IMG/VR virus record: IMGVR_UViG_3300042562_001598
Location: 89,149-153,148 of that record
Strand: one strand, 5' to 3'
DNA length: 64,000 nucleotides
DNA from: a virus
Shown: positions 27,744 to 63,879 of the stretch, in pieces
How the letters are laid out: every line of letters begins with the position of its first letter
Numbering within the stretch: position 1 is the first letter of the stretch
Notes under the pieces: generated by a model
What the model saw: only the letters and a program-made list of their open reading frames with translations
Told to the model about the DNA's origin: nothing
Database searches by the model: none
Program-made: the position numbers and the translations under genes

Positions 27744-28718
27744 ATGGGTAATAAAACATTAAAGGTGGTTAGTTTATTTTCAGGGTACGGAACACAAGAA
27801 TTGGCTCTGAAATATCTTGGGGTTAACTATGAGAATATTGCTAATTGTGATATCTTAAAATCGGCTAATGAAGCTTACGATAGTTTACATACTACAGAGT
27901 GTGGTAACTTGGGGGATGTGTCAAAGATTGATGAAACACAATTCCCGGATTGTGATTTCTTAACATATTCATTCCCATGTCAGGATATCTCAATCTCTGG
28001 TGTTCAGAAAGGTATTAAAAAAGGAACTAGGTCAGGTTTATTATTTGAGGTTGAACGAATCGTTGAATACAATAAACCAAAGTATTTGTTAATGGAGAAT
28101 GTTAAGAACTTGGTATCAAAAAACCATATTGAAGCGTTTTCTGAATACATTCGTAATTTGGAAGAATTGGGTTATGGAAATCACTGGATGATATTAAACG
28201 GAGCTGATTATGGTTGCCCCCAAAATAGAGAAAGGGTTTTTATGTTTTCTGTATTGGGTGAGAGTAATGAGGTTGTTCGTGAAAAAATGTTGGGGGTCTT
28301 GAACCTTAAGGAAGAAAGGGTTCCGATGAAATGTTATATTGAGGATGATGCTGATGAAAAGTTATTTATCAATCCCCCATTTGAGTGGAATGATTCCAAG
28401 GTAAAGTCGGTGTGTAAATTAATTGCTAGAAGAAGTGATATTAAGTATGACCAGACCCGTAGGATATATTCAACTGAAGCTTGTTCTCCTTGTTTAACAA
28501 CATCGGGTTCACCTCAGATAATGTTGGAGGATAAGAGAATAAGAACATTAACTGCAAGGGAAGGTTATCGTTTTATGGGTGTTAAAGATGAGGATATTGA
28601 TAAGTTATTGACAACCAAATTATCAACCAATCAACATATTGCTTTGGCTGGTAACTCAATATGTGTTCCGGTTATGAGTGCAATATTCCAACAATTCTTT
28701 GAGGAATATCAAAACTAA
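27744..28718 (+). CDS. DNA (cytosine-5)-methyltransferase (Dcm-like)
   Basis: motif I VVSLFSGYGTQ, motif IV FPCQDIS, motif VI LLMENVKNLV. Confidence 0.85.
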   Translation: MGNKTLKVVSLFSGYGTQELALKYLGVNYENIANCDILKSANEAYDSLHTTECGNLGDVSKIDETQFPDCDFLTYSFPCQDISISGVQKGIKKGTRSGLLFEVERIVEYNKPKYLLMENVKNLVSKNHIEAFSEYIRNLEELGYGNHWMILNGADYGCPQNRERVFMFSVLGESNEVVREKMLGVLNLKEERVPMKCYIEDDADEKLFINPPFEWNDSKVKSVCKLIARRSDIKYDQTRRIYSTEACSPCLTTSGSPQIMLEDKRIRTLTAREGYRFMGVKDEDIDKLLTTKLSTNQHIALAGNSICVPVMSAIFQQFFEEYQN

Positions 28719-40046: not shown

Positions 40047-41975
40047 ATGGAAAAGATAAATGTATTGAGTTTGTTTGATGGGATGAGTTGTGGTCAGATT
40101 GCTCTGAATAGAGCTGGTATTGAGTATGGTAATTATTATGCTTCTGAAATTGATAAACACGCAATTAAAGAAACCATGGCGAACTATCCCAATACAATCC
40201 AGGTTGGTGATGTTACAAAGATTACAGCGTCAGATTTACCAAAGATAGACTTATTAATTGGTGGTAGTCCATGTTTTACCGCGGGTAATTTAGTGATGAC
40301 TAATGATGGTTATAAACCAATAGAAGATATTGTTGTTGGTGATATGGTATTGACTCATAAAAATAGGTATAAAAAAGTTTTAAGAATTGGTGGTGAAATT
40401 AAAGAGACGATACGAGTAAAATCCCAAGGGTCAAGTATGATAGAAACAACTAGAAACCATCCATTTTATTGTTTTGAGAGTAATGGTGAGAATTCTGACT
40501 TTTGTTGGAAAAATATTGGTGATTTTAATAAAAAAGATAAAGTTGTATCTATAAATTGGGGTGTAAATATTGATTTTGAGAACTTTTCAAATATTGATTT
40601 ATACATATTAGGTCGTTTTTTAGCGGATGGTTGTTGTTACAAAACAAAAAGAAAAGATAGAGATAATTCTTACATCTATAAGTTTAAAATAAGTGTTGGG
40701 AAACATGAAATAGATGACTTTAAGAGTAAAGTTGATGATAGATTTACCTATATTGAAGAAAAAACTGTATATAATGCTTTTATATATAAAAAAGAATGGG
40801 TTGAGATAGGTGAAAAATTTGGCCACTTAGCTCATAATAAATTTATACCTAATTTCATATTAGATTTACCTATTGATAGACTTAAAATTTTCATCAATGG
40901 ATATATGGATGGTGATGGTCATGTTAGAAAACAAGCTTCTAAAGTCAATGTATATAAAAGAAATACGACTGTTAGTGAAAAACTAGCTCTTACATTATCT
41001 TTAGCTATACAAAAATGTTACAATGGGGTGTCAATTAATTATACAAAAAGAGAAAATACTTGTGTTATTGAAGGTAGAGTTGTAAATCAAAAAGGGACTT
41101 ATGAAGTTTCATATACTGAAAATAAAACAAAATTTAGTAAGTATAAAATAATAAATGATTATACAATTTACAACCTGACTAAAAGTGTTTCATTTGTTGA
41201 AACTGGAACTAATCCTGTTTATAATATAGAGGTAGAAGAAGATAATTCATATGTGGTTAATAATCTAATTGTTCATAATTGCCAAGGATTTTCTTTTAGT
41301 GGAAAACAATTAAACTTTGAGGACCCAAGAAGTAAATTGTTCTTTGAGTTTGTTAGACTATTAAAGGAGTGTAATCCGAAATACTTTTTACTTGAGAATG
41401 TTGTAATGAAAAAAGAATATGAACAGGTAATAACTGATTACTTGGGAGTAGAACCCATTCAGATTAATTCCACTTTGGTGGCAGCCCAAAATCGCGTGAG
41501 ATTGTATTGGACCAATATACCAAATGTTCAACAACCTGAAGATAGAAACATAAGGTTAATTGATATTTTAGAAGATGATGTAATGATTGGCGATACAATT
41601 GTTAGAAAGGAGAACCTGAACAAAGGAACTATACTTGGTAGGAGACTAAATAACGAGGGTAAGAGAGACGATTACAATAAAAGTGTGCCAATAGTTCAGT
41701 GCCTTGAGATAAGAGCGTCAAATAGAGAAAAAAGTAATTGTATAACAACCGTGGCCAAAGATAATGTTTTATCTACATTACCAATAGGTCGGCATGTTGA
41801 TGCGTTTAATAAGAAATTACCTTTTAGATATTATACGACTACAGAATATAGTAGATTACAGACTGTTCCAGATGATTATTTCAAGGTTTCAAGTGATAAT
41901 CAGATAAGAAAAATGATTGGTAATGGGTGGACTGTTGATGTTATTGCTCACATATTCAATAATATACAACTATAA
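40047..41975 (+). CDS. DNA (cytosine-5)-methyltransferase interrupted by an intein
   Basis: N-extein ...LIGGSP / intein CFTAGNLV...VHN / C-extein CQGFSFSGKQ; spliced product restores GGSPCQ motif IV. Confidence 0.8.
   Translation: MEKINVLSLFDGMSCGQIALNRAGIEYGNYYASEIDKHAIKETMANYPNTIQVGDVTKITASDLPKIDLLIGGSPCFTAGNLVMTNDGYKPIEDIVVGDMVLTHKNRYKKVLRIGGEIKETIRVKSQGSSMIETTRNHPFYCFESNGENSDFCWKNIGDFNKKDKVVSINWGVNIDFENFSNIDLYILGRFLADGCCYKTKRKDRDNSYIYKFKISVGKHEIDDFKSKVDDRFTYIEEKTVYNAFIYKKEWVEIGEKFGHLAHNKFIPNFILDLPIDRLKIFINGYMDGDGHVRKQASKVNVYKRNTTVSEKLALTLSLAIQKCYNGVSINYTKRENTCVIEGRVVNQKGTYEVSYTENKTKFSKYKIINDYTIYNLTKSVSFVETGTNPVYNIEVEEDNSYVVNNLIVHNCQGFSFSGKQLNFEDPRSKLFFEFVRLLKECNPKYFLLENVVMKKEYEQVITDYLGVEPIQINSTLVAAQNRVRLYWTNIPNVQQPEDRNIRLIDILEDDVMIGDTIVRKENLNKGTILGRRLNNEGKRDDYNKSVPIVQCLEIRASNREKSNCITTVAKDNVLSTLPIGRHVDAFNKKLPFRYYTTTEYSRLQTVPDDYFKVSSDNQIRKMIGNGWTVDVIAHIFNNIQL
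40272..41279 (+). mobile_element. intein (336 aa) with LAGLIDADG homing-endonuclease domain
   Basis: block A CFTAGNLVMTNDG, block B TTRNHPFY (TxxH), LAGLIDADG-like LYILGRFLADGCCY and FINGYMDGDGHV, terminal HN followed by +1 Cys. Confidence 0.7.
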
Positions 41976-57615: not shown

Positions 57616-57640
57616 AAAAGGTGGGGATTTTATCTTTATA
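57598..57640 (+). terminator. intrinsic terminator (repeated cassette)
   Basis: tcctcatccaattaaaaaaggtggggat + T run. Confidence 0.5.
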
Positions 57641-58551
57641 TCAATTATGTAATTTGATTATGAACTATATCAACTCAATTCATTTCTCACTGGCGTGAGA
57701 ACCACTACATTCTTCACTATCGTTCAGAACTCCGTTATTCATTTCGTTAATACATTTCATAATCAAATTCTTCAATTAATATCCTAATATTTGACTTTTA
57801 TATACTATACTCGGATAACAAATGTAAATATACACATTCCCCCCATATAAGAACATCCTATAGTAATATATTTATCCCCCCCATATAAGTTCCCTATTCA
57901 GAGGGACATATATAAAAGAGATAAGTATTTCGGTTAAGTAATCTGTTTATAGGGAATATATTATTAATCAATCCTTGATTATTAAGTTATTCTTTAGTAG
58001 ATTTAATGTGGAATATCGTTTAACCCCTATATAAGTGAATTATTAAATGGGTTAAAATAATGAGGTATAACCTCATAAAATAACCTGAATGATAATTGGT
58101 CTGTGGGTTATGGAATATGTCGTTAAATGGGGGTTAAAATGACCTCTACGAGGGCTCGTTGAAGATACCATTCTAACACACTACGTGTTTCCACCGCCTA
58201 TGAACCATAACTATAATTTCTTGCTGGGAAACATAGATAGTAAATAAAGTGGTCTTTACGGTATCACCAGGGGGAATAAATTGGTCTTTACACTATTGTA
58301 ACAACCATATTCGGTGGTAATCTGTGGTAGATTATGGTAAGTCTAATAGTCTGAAATAGTGGTGGGGGGATTATCCCCCATTCAACACTCACCTGACATT
58401 CTGACATAATCAAGAAAATTAGCATAAAGTTATTAACAAAATTGGTCTTGTAGATACCCCCAGGATAAACACTATAATAAATAATGAGTATAAATAACGG
58501 GTATAATTTGTACCGATTATAAATAAGTAATAAATAATTAATATAAATAAG
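57641..58551. other. about 900-bp ORF-poor region dense in short repeats, hairpins and C-runs (candidate origin/regulatory hub or structured RNA)
   Basis: CCCC(C)ATATAAG x3 (57841, 57881, 58025); TAAATGGG(GG)TTAAAAT x2; TGGTCTT(T/G) x3; palindrome GGGGGATTATCCCCC at about 58366; hairpins tctcacTGGCgtgaga, gaggtATAacctc. Confidence 0.4.
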
Positions 58552-59048: not shown

Positions 59049-59243
59049 TTAGTTAAGTTCATCGTATATCTCCAGGGTAACAAGGTTCCATACCGGAAGT
59101 TCTATTGATTTATATGGGGGATTATAAATGGACTGGGGATAATCATACCTGGTCTTTATCCAAAGGGGTGTATCAATATTGAGACTTATTGAACTATACA
59201 CTATACCCTTAACTGACTTCCCCAATGTAATCTTTGTTTTCAT
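59049..59243 (-). CDS. array unit (degenerate C-terminus)
   Basis: MKTKITLGKSVKGIVYSSISLNIDTPLW... Confidence 0.4.
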   Translation of the reverse strand: MKTKITLGKSVKGIVYSSISLNIDTPLWIKTRYDYPQSIYNPPYKSIELPVWNLVTLEIYDELN

Positions 59244-59414
59244 AATCTAAAATTTGTTGAATTATTAACAGGGTCAACCAATAACCTCCATACTAAATCA
59301 TATATTGGACCATGCACGGAACTCATCAATGAACGACTAACTGAACGCCACACTGAACTCCTCACTTTATCCCTAACTGATTTCCCCAATCTAATCCTGG
59401 GGGTAATAACTTCT
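59241..59414 (-). CDS. SV-repeat minigene (approx, not in track)
   Basis: MKEVITPRIRLGKSVRDKVRSSVWRSVSRSLMSSVHG...NFRL. Confidence 0.4.
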
Positions 59415-59415
59415 T

Positions 59416-59643
59416 TCATATACTATTCTTTATTGAATTATTAACTGAACCATACACTAAATTCCACACTGAACTATATACTGAAATATTCACTGAACGC
59501 CTAACTGAACAACTCACTGAACTATGTACGGAACTATACATTGAATTATCTACTGAACCATACACTAAATTCCACACTGAATTCCACACTAACTTATCCA
59601 CCGGTTTACCCAATCTAATCCTGGGGGTAATAACTTCTTTCAT
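59416..59643 (-). CDS. SV-repeat minigene (MKEV type)
   Basis: MKEVITPRIRLGKPVDKLVWNSVWNLVYGSV... Confidence 0.55.
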   Translation of the reverse strand: MKEVITPRIRLGKPVDKLVWNSVWNLVYGSVDNSMYSSVHSSVSCSVRRSVNISVYSSVWNLVYGSVNNSIKNSI

Positions 59644-59843
59644 ATACTATTCTTTATTGAATTATTAACTGAACGCCAAGCTGAACTATACACTGAATCA
59701 TATACTGAATTCTGCACCGAACTATCCACTGAACCACACACTATACTCCTCAATGAAATATCCACTGAACTACTCACTGAATCATACACTGACCTCCTCA
59801 CTTTACGATTAACCGATTTCCCCAAGACTAACTTTGTTTTCAT
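59640..59843 (-). CDS. SV-repeat minigene (MKTK type; listed ORF extends to 59864)
   Basis: internal start MKTKLVLGKSVNRKVRRSVYDSV. Confidence 0.5.
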   Translation of the reverse strand: MKTKLVLGKSVNRKVRRSVYDSVSSSVDISLRSIVCGSVDSSVQNSVYDSVYSSAWRSVNNSIKNSI

Positions 59844-60007
59844 AATATAAAACTTGAACTCCACACCGAATTAAACACTGAAATATTTACTGAACCACAC
59901 ACTATACTCCTCACTGAACTATCCACTGAATAATACACTGACTTCCTCACTTTAACCTTAACCGATTTCCCCAAGACTAACTTGGGGGTAATAATCTTAT
60001 TATCCAT
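59840..60007 (-). CDS. SV-repeat minigene (55 aa, approx, not in track)
   Basis: MDNKIITPKLVLGKSVKVKVRKSVYYSVDSSVRSIVCGSV... Confidence 0.4.
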   Translation of the reverse strand: MDNKIITPKLVLGKSVKVKVRKSVYYSVDSSVRSIVCGSVNISVFNSVWSSSFIL

Positions 60008-60183
60008 AATCTAAAATTTGTTGAACTATATACTGAAATATTCACTGAGCGTCTAACTGAAAACCAGACTGAACTATGTACTAAATCCCACAATGAACTA
60101 CCCACTGAACTACTCAATGACCTATTCACTGACCTACTAACTGATTCCCCCAATGTAATCCTGGGGGTTATTACTTCTTTCAT
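59977..60183 (-). CDS. SV-repeat minigene (MKEV type; reads through into next leader)
   Basis: MKEVITPRITLGESVSRSVNRSLSSSVGSS... Confidence 0.5.
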   Translation of the reverse strand: MKEVITPRITLGESVSRSVNRSLSSSVGSSLWDLVHSSVWFSVRRSVNISVYSSTNFRLWIIRLLPPS

Positions 60184-60398
60184 AATCTATTCTTTATTGA
60201 TTCACGTATTGGACGACTAACTGAACTCTTCACTGAACTATGCACTGACCTTTCTACTGAATGATACAATGAAATATCCACAGAACTACTTACTAAACGA
60301 CTAGCTGAATAATCCCTCAATGAATGATACACTGAACGATTAATTGAATCCCACAATTTATCCTTAACAGATTCTCTAATTCTAATCTTTGTTTTCAT
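60180..60398 (-). CDS. SV-repeat minigene (MKTK type)
   Basis: MKTKIRIRESVKDKLWDSINRSVYHSL... Confidence 0.5.
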   Translation of the reverse strand: MKTKIRIRESVKDKLWDSINRSVYHSLRDYSASRLVSSSVDISLYHSVERSVHSSVKSSVSRPIRESIKNRL

Positions 60399-60622
60399 AA
60401 TCTATTTATTATTGAACTCCTCACTGACCTTATCACTGAACTATTCACTGAACGATACACTGAACGATACACTGAACGATATACTGAACTCCTAACAGAA
60501 CCCCTCACTGAACGATTCACCGAACTATTCACTGACCTTATCACTGAACTACTCACTGAACTATCCACTTTACCCTTAACTGACTTCCCCAATGTAATCC
60601 TGGGGGATATTACTTCTTTCAT
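60395..60622 (-). CDS. SV-repeat minigene with 3x perfect 12-nt tandem repeat (SVYRSVYRSVYRSV)
   Basis: gaacgatacact x3 at about 60450-60485. Confidence 0.55.
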   Translation of the reverse strand: MKEVISPRITLGKSVKGKVDSSVSSSVIRSVNSSVNRSVRGSVRSSVYRSVYRSVYRSVNSSVIRSVRSSIINRL

Positions 60623-60822
60623 AATCTATTCTTTATTGATTCATTAACTGAACCCTTAATTGAACTCCATACTGAATTAGTCACTGGTCTCCACACCGAA
60701 TCATCCACTGACCTAACCACTGTAGTATTAACCGACCCCATACTTGAACCCACCACATAATCATGTAGATAAACTCTCACTTTACGATTAACCGGTTTCC
60801 CCAATGTAATCTTTGTTTTCAT
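60619..60822 (-). CDS. SV-repeat minigene (MKTK type)
   Basis: MKTKITLGKPVNRKVRVYLHDYVVGSS... Confidence 0.5.
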   Translation of the reverse strand: MKTKITLGKPVNRKVRVYLHDYVVGSSMGSVNTTVVRSVDDSVWRPVTNSVWSSIKGSVNESIKNRL

Positions 60823-61034
60823 AATATAAAATTTGTTAAACTCCTGATTGGAGAATCCACTGAACGCCTAACTGAAATATACACCGAACTACTCACTGAA
60901 CTATATACTGAACCATGCACTGACCTTTCTACTGAACTATATACTGAACCATGCACGGAATTATCTACTGAACTCAACACTAACTTATTAACCGACTTCC
61001 CCAATCTTATCCTGGGGGATATAACTTCTTTCAT
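60819..61034 (-). CDS. SV-repeat minigene (MKEV type)
   Basis: MKEVISPRIRLGKSVNKLVLSSVDNSVHGSVYSSV... Confidence 0.55.
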   Translation of the reverse strand: MKEVISPRIRLGKSVNKLVLSSVDNSVHGSVYSSVERSVHGSVYSSVSSSVYISVRRSVDSPIRSLTNFIL

Positions 61035-61222
61035 ATTCTATTCTTTATTGAACTATATACTGAATTACTCACTGAACTCTCCACTGAAGACCTTACCAAT
61101 CTCCATACTGAATCATACACTGGAATATTTACTGAACCACACAATGCACCAATCATTGACATATCCAGCGAACTTCTTAATTTATCACTAACTGACCTCC
61201 CCAATTTAATATTTGTATTCAT
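61031..61222 (-). CDS. SV-repeat minigene (internal start MNTNIKLGRSV of listed ORF 61031-61279)
   Basis: leader variant. Confidence 0.45.
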   Translation of the reverse strand: MNTNIKLGRSVSDKLRSSLDMSMIGALCGSVNIPVYDSVWRLVRSSVESSVSNSVYSSIKNRI

Positions 61223-61409
61223 TATTAAAAGTTGTTGGATACCACAATGAATCACACACTGCATCACATACAGAATCACGCAATAACCAATTCACTGAAC
61301 TATACACGGAACTATATACAGAATCGTACACTGTAATCCTAAGTGAACTACTTATTTCACCCTTAACCGGTTTCCCCAATCTAATCCTGGGGGTCATAAC
61401 TTCTTTCAT
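61206..61409 (-). CDS. SV-repeat minigene (MKEV type, degenerate tail)
   Basis: MKEVMTPRIRLGKPVKGEISSSLRITVYDSVYSSVYSSV. Confidence 0.5.
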   Translation of the reverse strand: MKEVMTPRIRLGKPVKGEISSSLRITVYDSVYSSVYSSVNWLLRDSVCDAVCDSLWYPTTFNNEYKY

Positions 61410-61624
61410 ATTCTAATGTTTATTGAATTAGTCACTGACCTATATACTGAACGATATACTGAACTACTCACCGAAATATCCACTGAACTCTTAACTGAAT
61501 TCCTAACTGGTCTACTTACTGAATTAGCCACTAAATCATACACTGACCTACTTACTTTATCCATAACCAAACTCCCCAATCTTATCCTGGGGGTTATTAC
61601 TTTACCATCCATATCACTTAACAA
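61406..61624 (-). CDS. SV-repeat minigene (outermost unit, leader MLSDMDGKVITPRIRLG)
   Basis: same family. Confidence 0.5.
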   Translation of the reverse strand: MLSDMDGKVITPRIRLGSLVMDKVSRSVYDLVANSVSRPVRNSVKSSVDISVSSSVYRSVYRSVTNSINIRI

Positions 61625-61629
61625 TTAAA

Positions 61630-62245
61630 CCACAAAGATAATCATTTATTCATTACAATCCTAATCCATCCTGGGGGAATAACAATCCCTTATATAAAAA
61701 TAAAAGGTAGGTCGCCGTCTACTCTACCCGATTGTAAAACAAATCGCGCCCCCGTGGAAGTCTTATCCCCCATTTCCGTTATACAAAGATACAAAACCCC
61801 CAGGTATAAACCAAACTTATATTCATAAAGTTATTAACATGACATATAGTCTGTTGATAACTTTCCCCCATTGTTAATAACTTCCTATTGTCAGTGCGTC
61901 AGGTTCATAACTTGTTAATAACTTCTAACCACCAGGGGAGGGAGCCACTTAAATGGTTCATTATTAGGTTGTTATACCGGGCTGCCTGGGGCGTATGGGG
62001 GGGCGCTACCTACTGCCCCCGTATCCCCCTTCCTTCCTGCCCCCTGTCAAAGTGTCAGAAGGGGGGATAATCCCAAGAATGAAGTGTATGGGTAAAAAAA
62101 ACTTTATAGGAAAATTGTTGGAAAAAGGTAAAATAAATTTCTGGAAAAAATTGGGGAAATGAGTCCCCCATTTACAGGGGTGGTTTAGAAATGATTTATG
62201 TATGTTTTTTCATTTTAGGTTATATTTATTATAAAAAAATATTAT
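61630..62245. other. ORF-free, locally GC-rich structured region with iterons (candidate ncRNA/origin/packaging signal)
   Basis: TTGTTAATAACTTC x2 plus GTTATTAAC/GTTGATAAC variants (61820-61930); GC hairpin GGGGGCGctacctactGCCCCCG at about 62005; C-rich runs; composition unlike rest of window. Confidence 0.4.
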
Positions 62246-62629
62246 ATGAAAAAAGTTATAACATTAACAGAAAACGATTTGGTTCGTTTAATTAAAAAAG
62301 TAATTAGTGAACAAATGAAAGTTGACGATTCAGAAGTTTCTCAATTTATTAAAACACCCAATAAATTAGTTATTCTTGATTTTACAGCTGAATGGTGTGG
62401 TCCTTGTCAAAAGATTAAAAAACATTTTGACGAGATTATTGAAAACCCTAAATTGAGTAACAAATTTATTTTAGGTTCTTATGATTTTAGTTTTAGTTCA
62501 CCGTTAGCGAAGAAATATAATATTCAAGGAATACCTTATGTTATGTTTTTTAGAAATGGTAAAATGATTCATAAGTTTGTAGGGTATAAAGACAAAGAAC
62601 ATATTGTTTCTTTAATACAGAAACTTTAA
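62246..62629 (+). CDS. thioredoxin with N-terminal shared module (MKKVITLTENDLVRLIKKVISEQ)
   Basis: canonical AEWCGPCQKIK active site. Confidence 0.7.
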   Translation: MKKVITLTENDLVRLIKKVISEQMKVDDSEVSQFIKTPNKLVILDFTAEWCGPCQKIKKHFDEIIENPKLSNKFILGSYDFSFSSPLAKKYNIQGIPYVMFFRNGKMIHKFVGYKDKEHIVSLIQKL

Positions 62630-62631
62630 TA

Positions 62632-62665
62632 ATCCCCCTCTTCAACGGAGGGGTTTTTTATTTTC
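62632..62665 (+). terminator. intrinsic terminator (ccccctcttcaacggagggg + T run); degenerate second copy at about 62745-62775
   Basis: hairpin + T6. Confidence 0.5.
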
Positions 62666-62842
62666 TATAAACACGAGCCCTTTATATATGGAGGGGTCAA
62701 TAGTGAAAAAAAAATTCTGGGAAAATTTTCAGAAAAAGGGGATTAGTATATATCTTCAACGAAAGGGGTTTTTTTATATCATCAATGTTGATTCTATAGT
62801 TTTTTATTTGTATGATTATATAAACCTTAAAATTTATATATT

Positions 62843-63133: not shown

Positions 63134-63165
63134 TTAACTCCCCCAATTATTTTATAGTTGGGGTT
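63128..63165 (+). terminator. intrinsic terminator (cccccaattattttatagttgggg + T run)
   Basis: near-identical copy at 63488-63528. Confidence 0.55.
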
Positions 63166-63217
63166 TTTTTTATTTTATGATATATTTATATTTAAATAAA
63201 ATTAAAAAATTAAAAAC

Positions 63218-63469
63218 ATGGGAAAAGTAATTAGATTAAGTGAAGACGATTTAAGTCGTTTGGTTAGAAAAATAATAAGTGAAGCGGTTATTGCTGAATC
63301 ATTTGATGATGTTGTAAACTATTTAGGTATTACACCTAATGAAAAAGGGAATATAAGTTTTAATTATAACCCACAAACCGGTCTTTATTTGACAAATACT
63401 AAAAATAACAGGAATTGTATATTAAAAATTACTCCACCAAAAACTCAACCAACTCAACCGGTACGATAA
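63218..63469 (+). CDS. small protein with shared N-terminal module (MGKVIRLSEDDLSRLVRKIISEA)
   Basis: 83-aa ORF in duplicated module. Confidence 0.4.
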   Translation: MGKVIRLSEDDLSRLVRKIISEAVIAESFDDVVNYLGITPNEKGNISFNYNPQTGLYLTNTKNNRNCILKITPPKTQPTQPVR

Positions 63470-63570
63470 AAAAATATATATTATTTACACCCCCAATTAT
63501 TTTATATAGTTGGGGTTTTTTTTATTTTATGATATATTTATATTTAAATAAAATAATTAAATTATTAAAT

Positions 63571-63879
63571 ATGAAAAAAGTAATAAGATTAACTGAATCC
63601 GATTTGATGAGGATTGTTAGAAGAGTGATTAAAGAGAATAACGCACCTGAAAGATATGTTATAGATATTGAAACGGGTAAAATGGTTGGAACACATCAAT
63701 ATGGTGTTGGTTTTACTGTAAATAAAATTGGTGAGAGAATGGGTTATGAATCAGACCCTGTTAGTATCCCTGATGGAACAAAGATGGAAGATAATGATAA
63801 CTCCCCTATGAGAATGGACAGATTTAATGATAGAGCTGAAATGCCTCGTATGAGAAGGTATAATGATTCACTTGAATAA
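63571..63879 (+). CDS. small protein with shared N-terminal module (MKKVIRLTESDLMRIVRRVIKEN); listed ORF 63415 starts upstream
   Basis: start right after duplicated terminator-promoter module. Confidence 0.45.
   Translation: MKKVIRLTESDLMRIVRRVIKENNAPERYVIDIETGKMVGTHQYGVGFTVNKIGERMGYESDPVSIPDGTKMEDNDNSPMRMDRFNDRAEMPRMRRYNDSLE

Follow-up and report, generated by a model that had tools for sequence, protein, structure and literature searches.

Between an array of genes on the minus strand (59049-61624) and a run of small genes on the plus strand (from 62246), a 64,000-nt stretch of viral DNA—positions 89,149 to 153,148 of IMG/VR record IMGVR_UViG_3300042562_001598, here called the window—leaves a gap of 620 nt with a GC-rich centre. 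Is this region (61630-62245) the source of an RNA, a small protein gene, or a signal that is read in the DNA itself? We find that it holds one arm of a conserved, single-copy, two-armed non-coding DNA element made up of DnaA-box-like repeats, a hairpin, TGACA repeats, G/C-run inverted repeats, and A/T tracts. The right arm lies at 61.83-62.17 kb and the left arm, which is inverted, at 58.13-58.44 kb; the two very probably form one two-part cis-acting element that works as a signal at the DNA level and codes for neither RNA nor protein. As to its function, we tentatively prefer a replication-origin-type protein-loading site, built like iteron or DnaA-box origins, and give this reading a probability of roughly 0.4.

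Architecture and conservation of the element

The preliminary description of this DNA called the centre of the gap locally GC-rich, and it proves to be the GC maximum of the 64 kb: 61921-62070 reaches 57% GC, the highest of any 150-nt stretch (mean 29.9%, standard deviation 5.3%), and runs of five G or five C are denser here than elsewhere in the window (10 per 500 nt). The strong GC hairpin of that description is present (GGGGGGGCGCTACCTACTGCCCCC, 61997-62020), and the repeats that it called iteron-like are far from a chance occurrence—five copies of AGTTATNNAC fall within 95 nt, out of nine in the 64 kb. The further motif copies that it had noticed are also there; allowing up to one mismatch, GGGGGATAAT occurs 13 times where 5.7 copies are expected, with eight of the 13 within 57.8-62.7 kb and two inside the region (61762-61771, minus; 62062-62071, plus). 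Two other sequences, TTYTGGRAAAA and AAAARTGGTC, show no enrichment as genome-wide repeats.

The right arm has one inverted partner in the window, 3.7 kb away. The composite of GGGATTATCCCC and CTGACAYTYTGACA occurs exactly twice, at 58367-58406 (plus) and 62074-62045 (minus), and the hairpin, the TGACA repeat, and the box are each essentially confined to these two places in 64 kb; a sixth match to AGTTATNNAC lies at 58428, in the left element. Common to both arms are a short G/C hairpin (GGGGGGAT[T/A]ATCCCC), a TGACA-N3-TGACA direct repeat, and AAGTTAT-NN-ACA boxes. The right arm carries in addition a G-run/C-run block of ~140 nt, arranged as inverted repeats and followed by phased A/T tracts. 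The features of both arms, together with those of the flanks, are collected in Table 1.

Table 1. Features of the two arms and of the adjoining non-coding DNA (window coordinates)
Feature	Position	Strand	Content and remarks
Conserved non-coding stretch left of the left element	58129-58363		direct repeats of type A[A/T]TGGTCTTTAC
Left element, inverted partner of the core	58364-58437	+	hairpin GGGGGGATTATCCCCC (58364-79); TGACATTCTGACA (58394-406); box AGTTATTAAC (58428-37)
Putative degenerate 5' end of an array gene	61670-61689	-	'..VIPPRM', compared with '..VITPRIR' in array genes
Bacteroidota-type promoter (predicted)	61815->61784	-	TTTG-N20-TATCTTTG; consensus match; faces the minus array, first gene start at 61624, 160 nt away
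Five AGTTATNNAC boxes	61829-38; 61853-62, 61873-82, 61903-12, 61914-23	+ (first); - (other four)	5/9 of the window's matches
TGTCAGTGCGTCA	61889-901		sits among the five boxes
G-run/C-run block	61935-62020		purine-rich arm GGGGAGGGAGCC (61935-46); imperfect partner GGCTGCCT (61980-87); hairpin G7-CG-CTACCTACT-G-C5 (61997-62020)
Right core	62021-62074	+	GTATCCCCC; C-rich spacer; TGTCAAAGTGTCA (62045-57); hairpin GGGGGGATAATCCC (62061-74)
A/T-tract region	62075-62170		motifs GGGTAAAAAAAACTTTATAGGAAAAT, TGTTGGAAAAA, TTCTGGAAAAAA; closing hairpin TGGGGAAATGAGTCCCCCA (62152-70), terminator-like on the minus strand
Promoter and 5' cassette of the thioredoxin-fold gene	62206-62245	+	~80% identity to many relatives' copies

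Relatives of the element were found by a scan for GTATCCCCC-N15-45-GGGGGATAATCCC, which matched 55 viral contigs (up to 326 kb long), two contigs from genome bins, and at least 120 metagenome contigs whose source names include freshwater, marine, and Tara. The block is thereby seen to be kept as DNA in relatives, at no fewer than 185 loci and in at least 108 distinct cores of public phage and metagenome sequence. A separate probe from the thioredoxin-fold gene that opens the plus-strand run (62246-62629) matched relatives solely through a common N-terminus of 23 amino acids, yet it led to relatives—at its loci lie a GC-rich stretch in synteny and 21 nt identical to the block. Between the window and its relatives only the non-coding arms can be aligned; the flanking coding DNA cannot. 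By BLAST against 50,697 GenBank phage records, no real match was found for the region, for the whole element of one relative, or for the consensus of the left element, and the exact 24-mer of the window's hairpin has no match in the viral contigs.

The order of parts is shared across the relatives. AAGTTAT-NN-ACA boxes come first, then a G-rich arm (at about -80) and, complementary to it, a C-rich one (at about -40), the loop between which often contains a box; the order continues through G-run/short spacer/C-run units (spacer 0-13 nt), GTATCCCCCC, a variable loop that often includes TGTCAnnnTGTCA, and GGGGGGATAATCCC to A/T tracts and the start of a small plus-strand gene. The tracts take the form AAAATTTTTGGGAAAAAAT in most relatives. 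In the 108 versions of the core, the loop carries the TGTC repeat in the orientation of the window (31), the same repeat inverted (13), a terminator-like G-run with T-run (23), or other sequence (41). By eye, the C-run strand may have G-quadruplex or i-motif potential in relatives, weaker in the window.

The boxes had no part in the search pattern that found the relatives. In the 350 nt 5' of the core they number 4.1 per kb, compared with 0.22 per kb elsewhere, a 19-fold difference, and at least one box is present in 118 of 138 distinct sequences. The two variable positions of AAGTTAT-NN-ACA are TA (74), CA (67), CC (41), or GA (20), and CC yields the consensus DnaA box, TTATCCACA. Perfect boxes stand in threes (TTATCCACA/TGTGGATAA) beside the core of four relatives (L041, L042, L045, L063), with three or four more ~1.0-1.5 kb upstream; two others (L039, L066) have smaller paired clusters. 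The window itself has a cluster of more than three boxes within one mismatch of TTATNCACA: TTATTAACA three times and TTATCAACA once (one mismatch each), together with TTATGAAC, all inside 95 nt.

Of the 37 distinct relatives with enough upstream sequence, 28 have the left module, inverted and 1.19-3.66 kb upstream of the core. Its internal spacing is fixed—27-30 nt from hairpin to TGAC repeat and, in the examples examined, 35 nt from repeat to box. In at least 15 related lineages, the adjoining stretch 58129-58363 retains ~70% identity across 230-290 nt, with CTGG.AAA...TATAGTAAAAAA and GTGG as invariant pieces, next to coding DNA that is not alignable; it has no credible open reading frame (ORF) and no consensus RNA structure, which leaves it a candidate for the promoter or the binding sites of the left arm. 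Further upstream, the non-coding DNA at 57620-58130 carries repeated CCCCCC(C)ATATAAG (57827-57889), and its segments 57638-57679 and 57741-57782 form an imperfect inverted repeat of 42 nt; C-run motifs of this kind occur at the same place in relatives (L009, 661-1100).

The closest relative, L107, is a metagenome contig of 1068 nt that is 82% identical to 61302-62183. Identity is ~70% along the array gene and nearly complete between the first array gene's 5' end and 61955; the sole difference in 61700-61955 changes one box from TTATCAAC into TTATGAAC. In the GC block the G/C arms are kept while spacers vary, with one compensatory change (C-G to T-A) in the hairpin at 61997-62020, and identity returns to ~97% over 62060-62150. 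The A/T-tract region as listed in Table 1 shows the same ~97% to L107 and 73-75% to four other relatives (L028, L033, L035, L097). For this one sequence pair, the near-identity would reflect either very strong constraint on the promoter and box part or a recent exchange of the segment. Across relatives, the G-rich and C-rich arms change in matched fashion (GGAGGGG/CCCCTCC, GGGGGAGGAGT/ACTCCTCCCCC, AGGGGGAGGGTA/TACCCTCCCCCT); because the arms change in step, and because of the compensatory change against L107, their complementarity is selected, which fits inverted repeats or extrudable DNA hairpins.

The window that carries this element has a G+C content of ~29% and phage-type genes, including a DnaJ homologue, an SbcC-like protein, and several C5 DNA methylases. 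Its DNA has no match in the same 50,697 GenBank records. For its DHH-family protein, the only matches (29-43% identity) are in uncultivated huge phages with genomes of 635-735 kb ('Mahaphage' study, PMC7162821). The clade with the element is one of globally distributed, uncultivated large phages, distant kin of the huge Bacteroidetes-infecting 'Mahaphage' genomes. The C5-cytosine DNA methylase genes are four in number (27744-28718, 37475-39163, 39166-40044, and 40047-41975); one of them is split by an intein (Hint domain plus LAGLIDADG-like region).

RNA folding and coding potential

Could the GC-rich block act as an RNA? The region had been described as highly structured, with a riboswitch, an intron remnant, or a small RNA among the options, and neither the structure nor any of these options found support. 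Against dinucleotide shuffles of the same composition there is no excess of folding: z is -1.5 (plus) and -0.1 (minus) for the whole region, and -0.07 (plus) and +1.38 (minus) for the GC block at 61925-62080. Rfam returns no match at the gathering score in the whole window and no family in 61630-62245 even up to E = 10, and a tRNA/tmRNA scan was empty. Folding of homologues was equally negative; RNAalifold recovers one invariant 9-bp stem (TATCCCCCC/GGGGGGATA) from 34 right-arm homologues, with a covariation term of 0, and a 5-bp hairpin only, with no covarying structure, from 18 left arms.

We therefore regard a structured RNA transcribed from the GC-rich block, whether a separate non-coding RNA or the 5' leader of the minus array, as highly improbable. 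Local hairpins are present, yet one of them (GGTAGG..CTACC, 61706-28) is lost in L107, and the single compensatory change in the hairpin at 61997-62020 stands beside the absence of any consensus structure or covariation in either arm. The only mildly unusual part is the minus strand of 61695-61930 (z = -2.7, reached by 2 of 200 shuffles), and ~150 nt (61625-61779) would be an array leader if the promoter facing the array is used. The spacers of the G-run/C-run units vary in length. A core loop that occurs in both orientations would be intolerable for an RNA; a loop that can be turned around or swapped for a terminator form fits a double-stranded DNA site instead.

The same sequences speak against a protein. 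The ORF at 61888-62070 had been suspected to be an artefact, and that suspicion was correct: it has no Pfam family match, and no frame is kept in relatives. Over the 108 versions, the distance between the two anchors modulo 3 divides 63/27/18, and no frame is free of stops in all of them. Because this distance is no constant multiple of three and no frame is open throughout, the Pro/Gly/Trp-rich ORFs are artefacts of composition, and a protein gene at either 61888-62070 or 61995-62162 is rejected. The remaining option of the preliminary description, a DNA signal such as an origin or a packaging site, fits the DnaA-box-like repeats, the inverted partner, and the number of loci.

Proposed origin-type loading and the comparison with phage T5

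How might such a signal work? As a replication-origin-type loading site, the element would present its boxes as binding sites for an initiator—host DnaA, or a phage protein of similar specificity. Host DnaA is proposed because the boxes are perfect TTATCCACA in many lineages and one mismatch away from it here. Once bound to the clustered boxes, the initiator would oligomerise there, with the G/C inverted repeats as a stiff or extrudable boundary, and the adjacent A/T tracts would be the region that opens; it is this opening beside bound boxes that would make the site origin-like. A G+C-rich segment is also carried by RK2 oriV and P1 oriR, and some oriC are bipartite (Bacillus, Helicobacter). 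Clustered DnaA boxes or iterons beside an A/T-rich unwinding region are the shared plan of oriC and iteron origins (PMC4285127, PMC4980987, PMC12230664). The element resembles these origins, including iteron-plasmid origins such as RK2 oriV and P1 oriR, in its clustered boxes, perhaps also in the A/T-rich stretch beside them, and the bipartite oriC in its two box clusters 1-4 kb apart; it differs from all of them in having no adjacent dnaA or rep gene, no GC-skew switch, a deviation at position 6 of the box, and inverted arms around a variable cassette instead of dnaA.

Several observations weigh against an origin. This genome contains no consensus DnaA box, position 6 being A rather than C in every copy, and NN differs among lineages; binding by host DnaA is therefore uncertain. 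The conserved neighbour ORFs have no Pfam family at the curated cut-off, and no initiator or replication, recombination, or terminase gene was seen among them. GC skew is positive on both sides of the element in the window, with no change of sign, and changes sign in one of 10 relatives with enough flank—a weak test, in that local skew tracks gene orientation. The A and T tracts of 62075-62245 (69-84% A/T) barely exceed a genome background that is already 70% A/T. The invariance of the two core anchors was set by the search pattern itself, and the near-identity to L107 could stem from recent recombination rather than from constraint.

The closest architecture in the literature is the 'iss' region of phage T5. 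In 25 T5-like phages this region has two inverted non-coding repeats with DnaA boxes, 1.85-4.26 kb apart; the repeats flank poorly conserved pre-early genes and belong to a large non-coding region at the boundary of the terminal repeat, which is the candidate injection stop signal (bioRxiv 10.1101/866236). By analogy, the element could act in DNA entry or in the processing of genome ends, for example through DNA held on membrane-bound DnaA, and not in replication. The likeness to the T5 arrangement (IRC-spacer-IRD / IRD'-spacer-IRC', Demerecviridae) is that of a non-coding inverted pair with DnaA boxes around poorly conserved small genes: two inverted non-coding copies a few kb apart, boxes at fixed positions, and non-conserved genes between them are all found here. 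The distances are comparable (1.19-3.66 kb here), direct repeats, inverted repeats, and palindromes are dense, and consensus boxes are mixed with the same variants (TTATCAACA, TTATTAACA); the non-coding part is conserved and the neighbouring genes are not.

The differences lead us to consider a T5-type function quite unlikely. Neither T5 nor any GenBank phage resembles the element in sequence; the T5 boxes are paired 3 bp apart, whereas the five boxes here are separated by 14, 10, 20, and 1 bp; and T5 lacks the G-run/C-run block, the GGGGGATAATCCC hairpin, and the TGACA repeats, all three of which are present in the element. Host phylum and phage family also differ, the position at a terminal-repeat boundary is one described for T5, and 62 kb of sequence precedes the element in the window. 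The T5 mechanism is itself hypothetical.

Contig ends might have favoured a role at genome ends, as 14 of the 55 viral contigs end within 1 kb of the element where 2.7 are expected. These ends occur at scattered positions to either side of it, and those of short metagenome contigs concentrate in the homopolymer block and at repeated gene cassettes; we therefore read them not as physical genome ends but as assembly breaks at a junction of conserved and variable, repeat-rich DNA. Ends no more than tens to hundreds of bases away from the core are found in the contigs of L012, L015, L026, L044-L048, L051-L053, L066, L068, L075, L084-L090, L104, L115, L116, and L136.

A wider proposal covers either function: a clade-wide control site that recruits host DnaA, either as an origin or as a T5-like checkpoint of DNA entry and host takeover, with inverted arms around an exchangeable cassette. 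We consider this proposal rather doubtful. If it were true, the motif GTATCCCCCC...GGGGGGATAATCCC with its AAGTTATNNACA boxes would mark, in hundreds of phage genomes from metagenomes, the origin or the site that controls entry. In kind, the element is a new form within the known class of cis-acting sites that bear DnaA boxes or iterons; it is absent from the deposited phage genomes (the GenBank records above) and from Rfam, and we found no description of it in the literature. Replication start and infection staging in very large uncultivated phages are almost unknown, as hardly any isolates exist, and the element offers a sequence-defined, testable handle on them—freshwater and marine loci by the hundred or more (at least 185), with DnaA-box-like repeats. 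It also marks a hot spot of small accessory-gene exchange. For annotation, it accounts for an artefactual GC-rich 'ORF' and points to a frequent assembly breakpoint.

Predicted promoters, variable genes, and mosaic flanks

The outer parts of 61630-62245 are ordinary, consisting of the predicted promoter of the minus array and the promoter cassette of the next plus-strand gene. The sigma-A consensus of Bacteroidota has TTTG at -33 and TAnnTTTG at -7, with 19-21 nt between them. This motif (TTTG-N19-21-TAnnTTTG) occurs 10 times in the window against 2.5 expected, a count reached by none of 100 shuffles, and the enrichment points to a host within the Bacteroidota. Sites include 6449, 8177, 18723, 42029, and 63943, and several on the plus strand (6449, 8177, 63943) stand just 5' of ORF starts; the site ahead of the minus array matches the consensus and is the predicted promoter of that array. 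A sigma-70 promoter scan gave fewer matches than shuffles and is uninformative. Intrinsic terminators are absent from the plus strand of 61630-62245, and the minus strand has one terminator-like site (62170-62152).

These signals allow a different account of the gap, in which it is a transcriptional boundary or control region—terminators, promoters, and operators for phage regulators that insulate the cassette from the plus-strand genes and control both. The array promoter, the promoter cassette at 62206-62245, and the minus-strand terminator-like site all suit this account, as do the palindromic hairpins and direct repeats, which have typical operator shapes. A canonical terminator loop is found in 23 of the 108 cores (for example CCCCCC-TTATATA-GGGGG-TTTTTT after plus-strand genes), but this version is lineage-specific. 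The hairpin, TGACA repeat, and box occur at the two arms and at no other promoter in the 64 kb; the orientation of flanking genes varies, the genes left of the right arm being on the minus strand here and on the plus strand in the L008 group; and a boundary needs neither ~140 nt of G/C-run inverted repeats nor DnaA boxes. We judge a boundary function to be unlikely as an explanation of the element.

The genes between the arms vary by lineage. Here they comprise one plus-strand ORF and the minus array; elsewhere the cassette holds small membrane proteins, an ORF of 158 amino acids, or an ORF in which an SprT-like HExxH motif can be recognised by eye. Pfam assigns no family to the genes between the arms, and among the ORFs flanking the block in the window the thioredoxin domain is the sole family found. 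Varying cassette content raises the prospect that the arms are anchors, homologous or site-specific, at which phages swap cassettes, and the relatives do show mosaic junctions: three loci (L040, L050, L061) are identical up to GGGGGGATAATCCC and divergent after it, three others (L027, L030, L049) have the same core with both flanks different, the identity of L107 jumps from ~70% to ~100% inside the first array gene, and contig breaks at the junction of conserved and variable DNA suggest strain-level variation. Mosaicism is, however, expected at any conserved island, and it leaves the DnaA boxes and the fixed internal spacing unexplained; no recombinase is associated with the element, and no lineage has the cassette in both orientations. 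A recombination junction is in our view very unlikely to be what the element is for. Neither this account nor that of a boundary is incompatible with origin function.

Two other readings of the inverted arms were rejected. A transposon-like origin of the arms is out on the absence of a transposase and on a position that is constant in all relatives. For an N4-type hairpin promoter at GGGGGGATTATCCCCC, the orientation of genes relative to the hairpins is not conserved.

The minus array (59049-61624), which is the cassette between the arms here and is absent from the other relatives examined, comprises 11-12 tandem small paralogous genes of 55-82 amino acids. They start with MKEVITPRIRLGKSV or MKTKI.LGKSV and continue in 12-nt (4-amino-acid) 'xSVx' repeats, of which there are 76 unit copies; Pfam has no match for them. 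The degenerate 5' end at 61670-61689 is one of the few stretches that differ from L107, and we infer that it is a decayed remnant of an array unit.

To the right of the block, copies of the 62206-62245 cassette in relatives always run on into the conserved N-terminus MKKVI.LTE.DL of small genes. The larger unit is repeated in the window (62206-62315, 63141-63290, 63491-63640), with many copies in L001-L017, and consists of a terminator, an A/T-rich promoter (..GATATATTTAT..), and an N-terminus of 23 residues (MKKVIRLTESDL.RIV.RVI.E). The C-terminal parts joined to this N-terminus are unrelated to one another, a thioredoxin fold in one case, and the unit keeps ~80% DNA identity across phages; it looks like a gene-shuffling cassette. 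The promoter/stem-loop (PeSL) units of T4-type phages, reportedly described by Arbiol et al. (2010) as conserved short regulatory modules on either side of variable small genes, within a hyperplastic region, resemble these terminator-promoter-N-terminus cassettes. Cassette swapping at the two arms, if it occurs, would be akin to the gene shuffling between such units. PeSL units are ~50-60 bp long and present in many copies per genome, whereas the element has ~0.3-0.5 kb per arm, a single inverted pair per genome, and DnaA-box-like repeats.

Some smaller observations concern the surroundings of the core in relatives. On the reverse strand of L048, ~260-377 nt upstream of the core, a segment has by eye the look of a tRNA gene, and in L047/L032 a GC-rich, possibly structured segment (also by eye) lies ~150-250 nt upstream, just outside the box cluster. 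The octamer CGTTGAAG / CTTCAACG occurs in the loops of terminator hairpins right of the block (62640-62650, 62757-62765); in the left-arm alignment, it also opens the conserved left region of most relatives.

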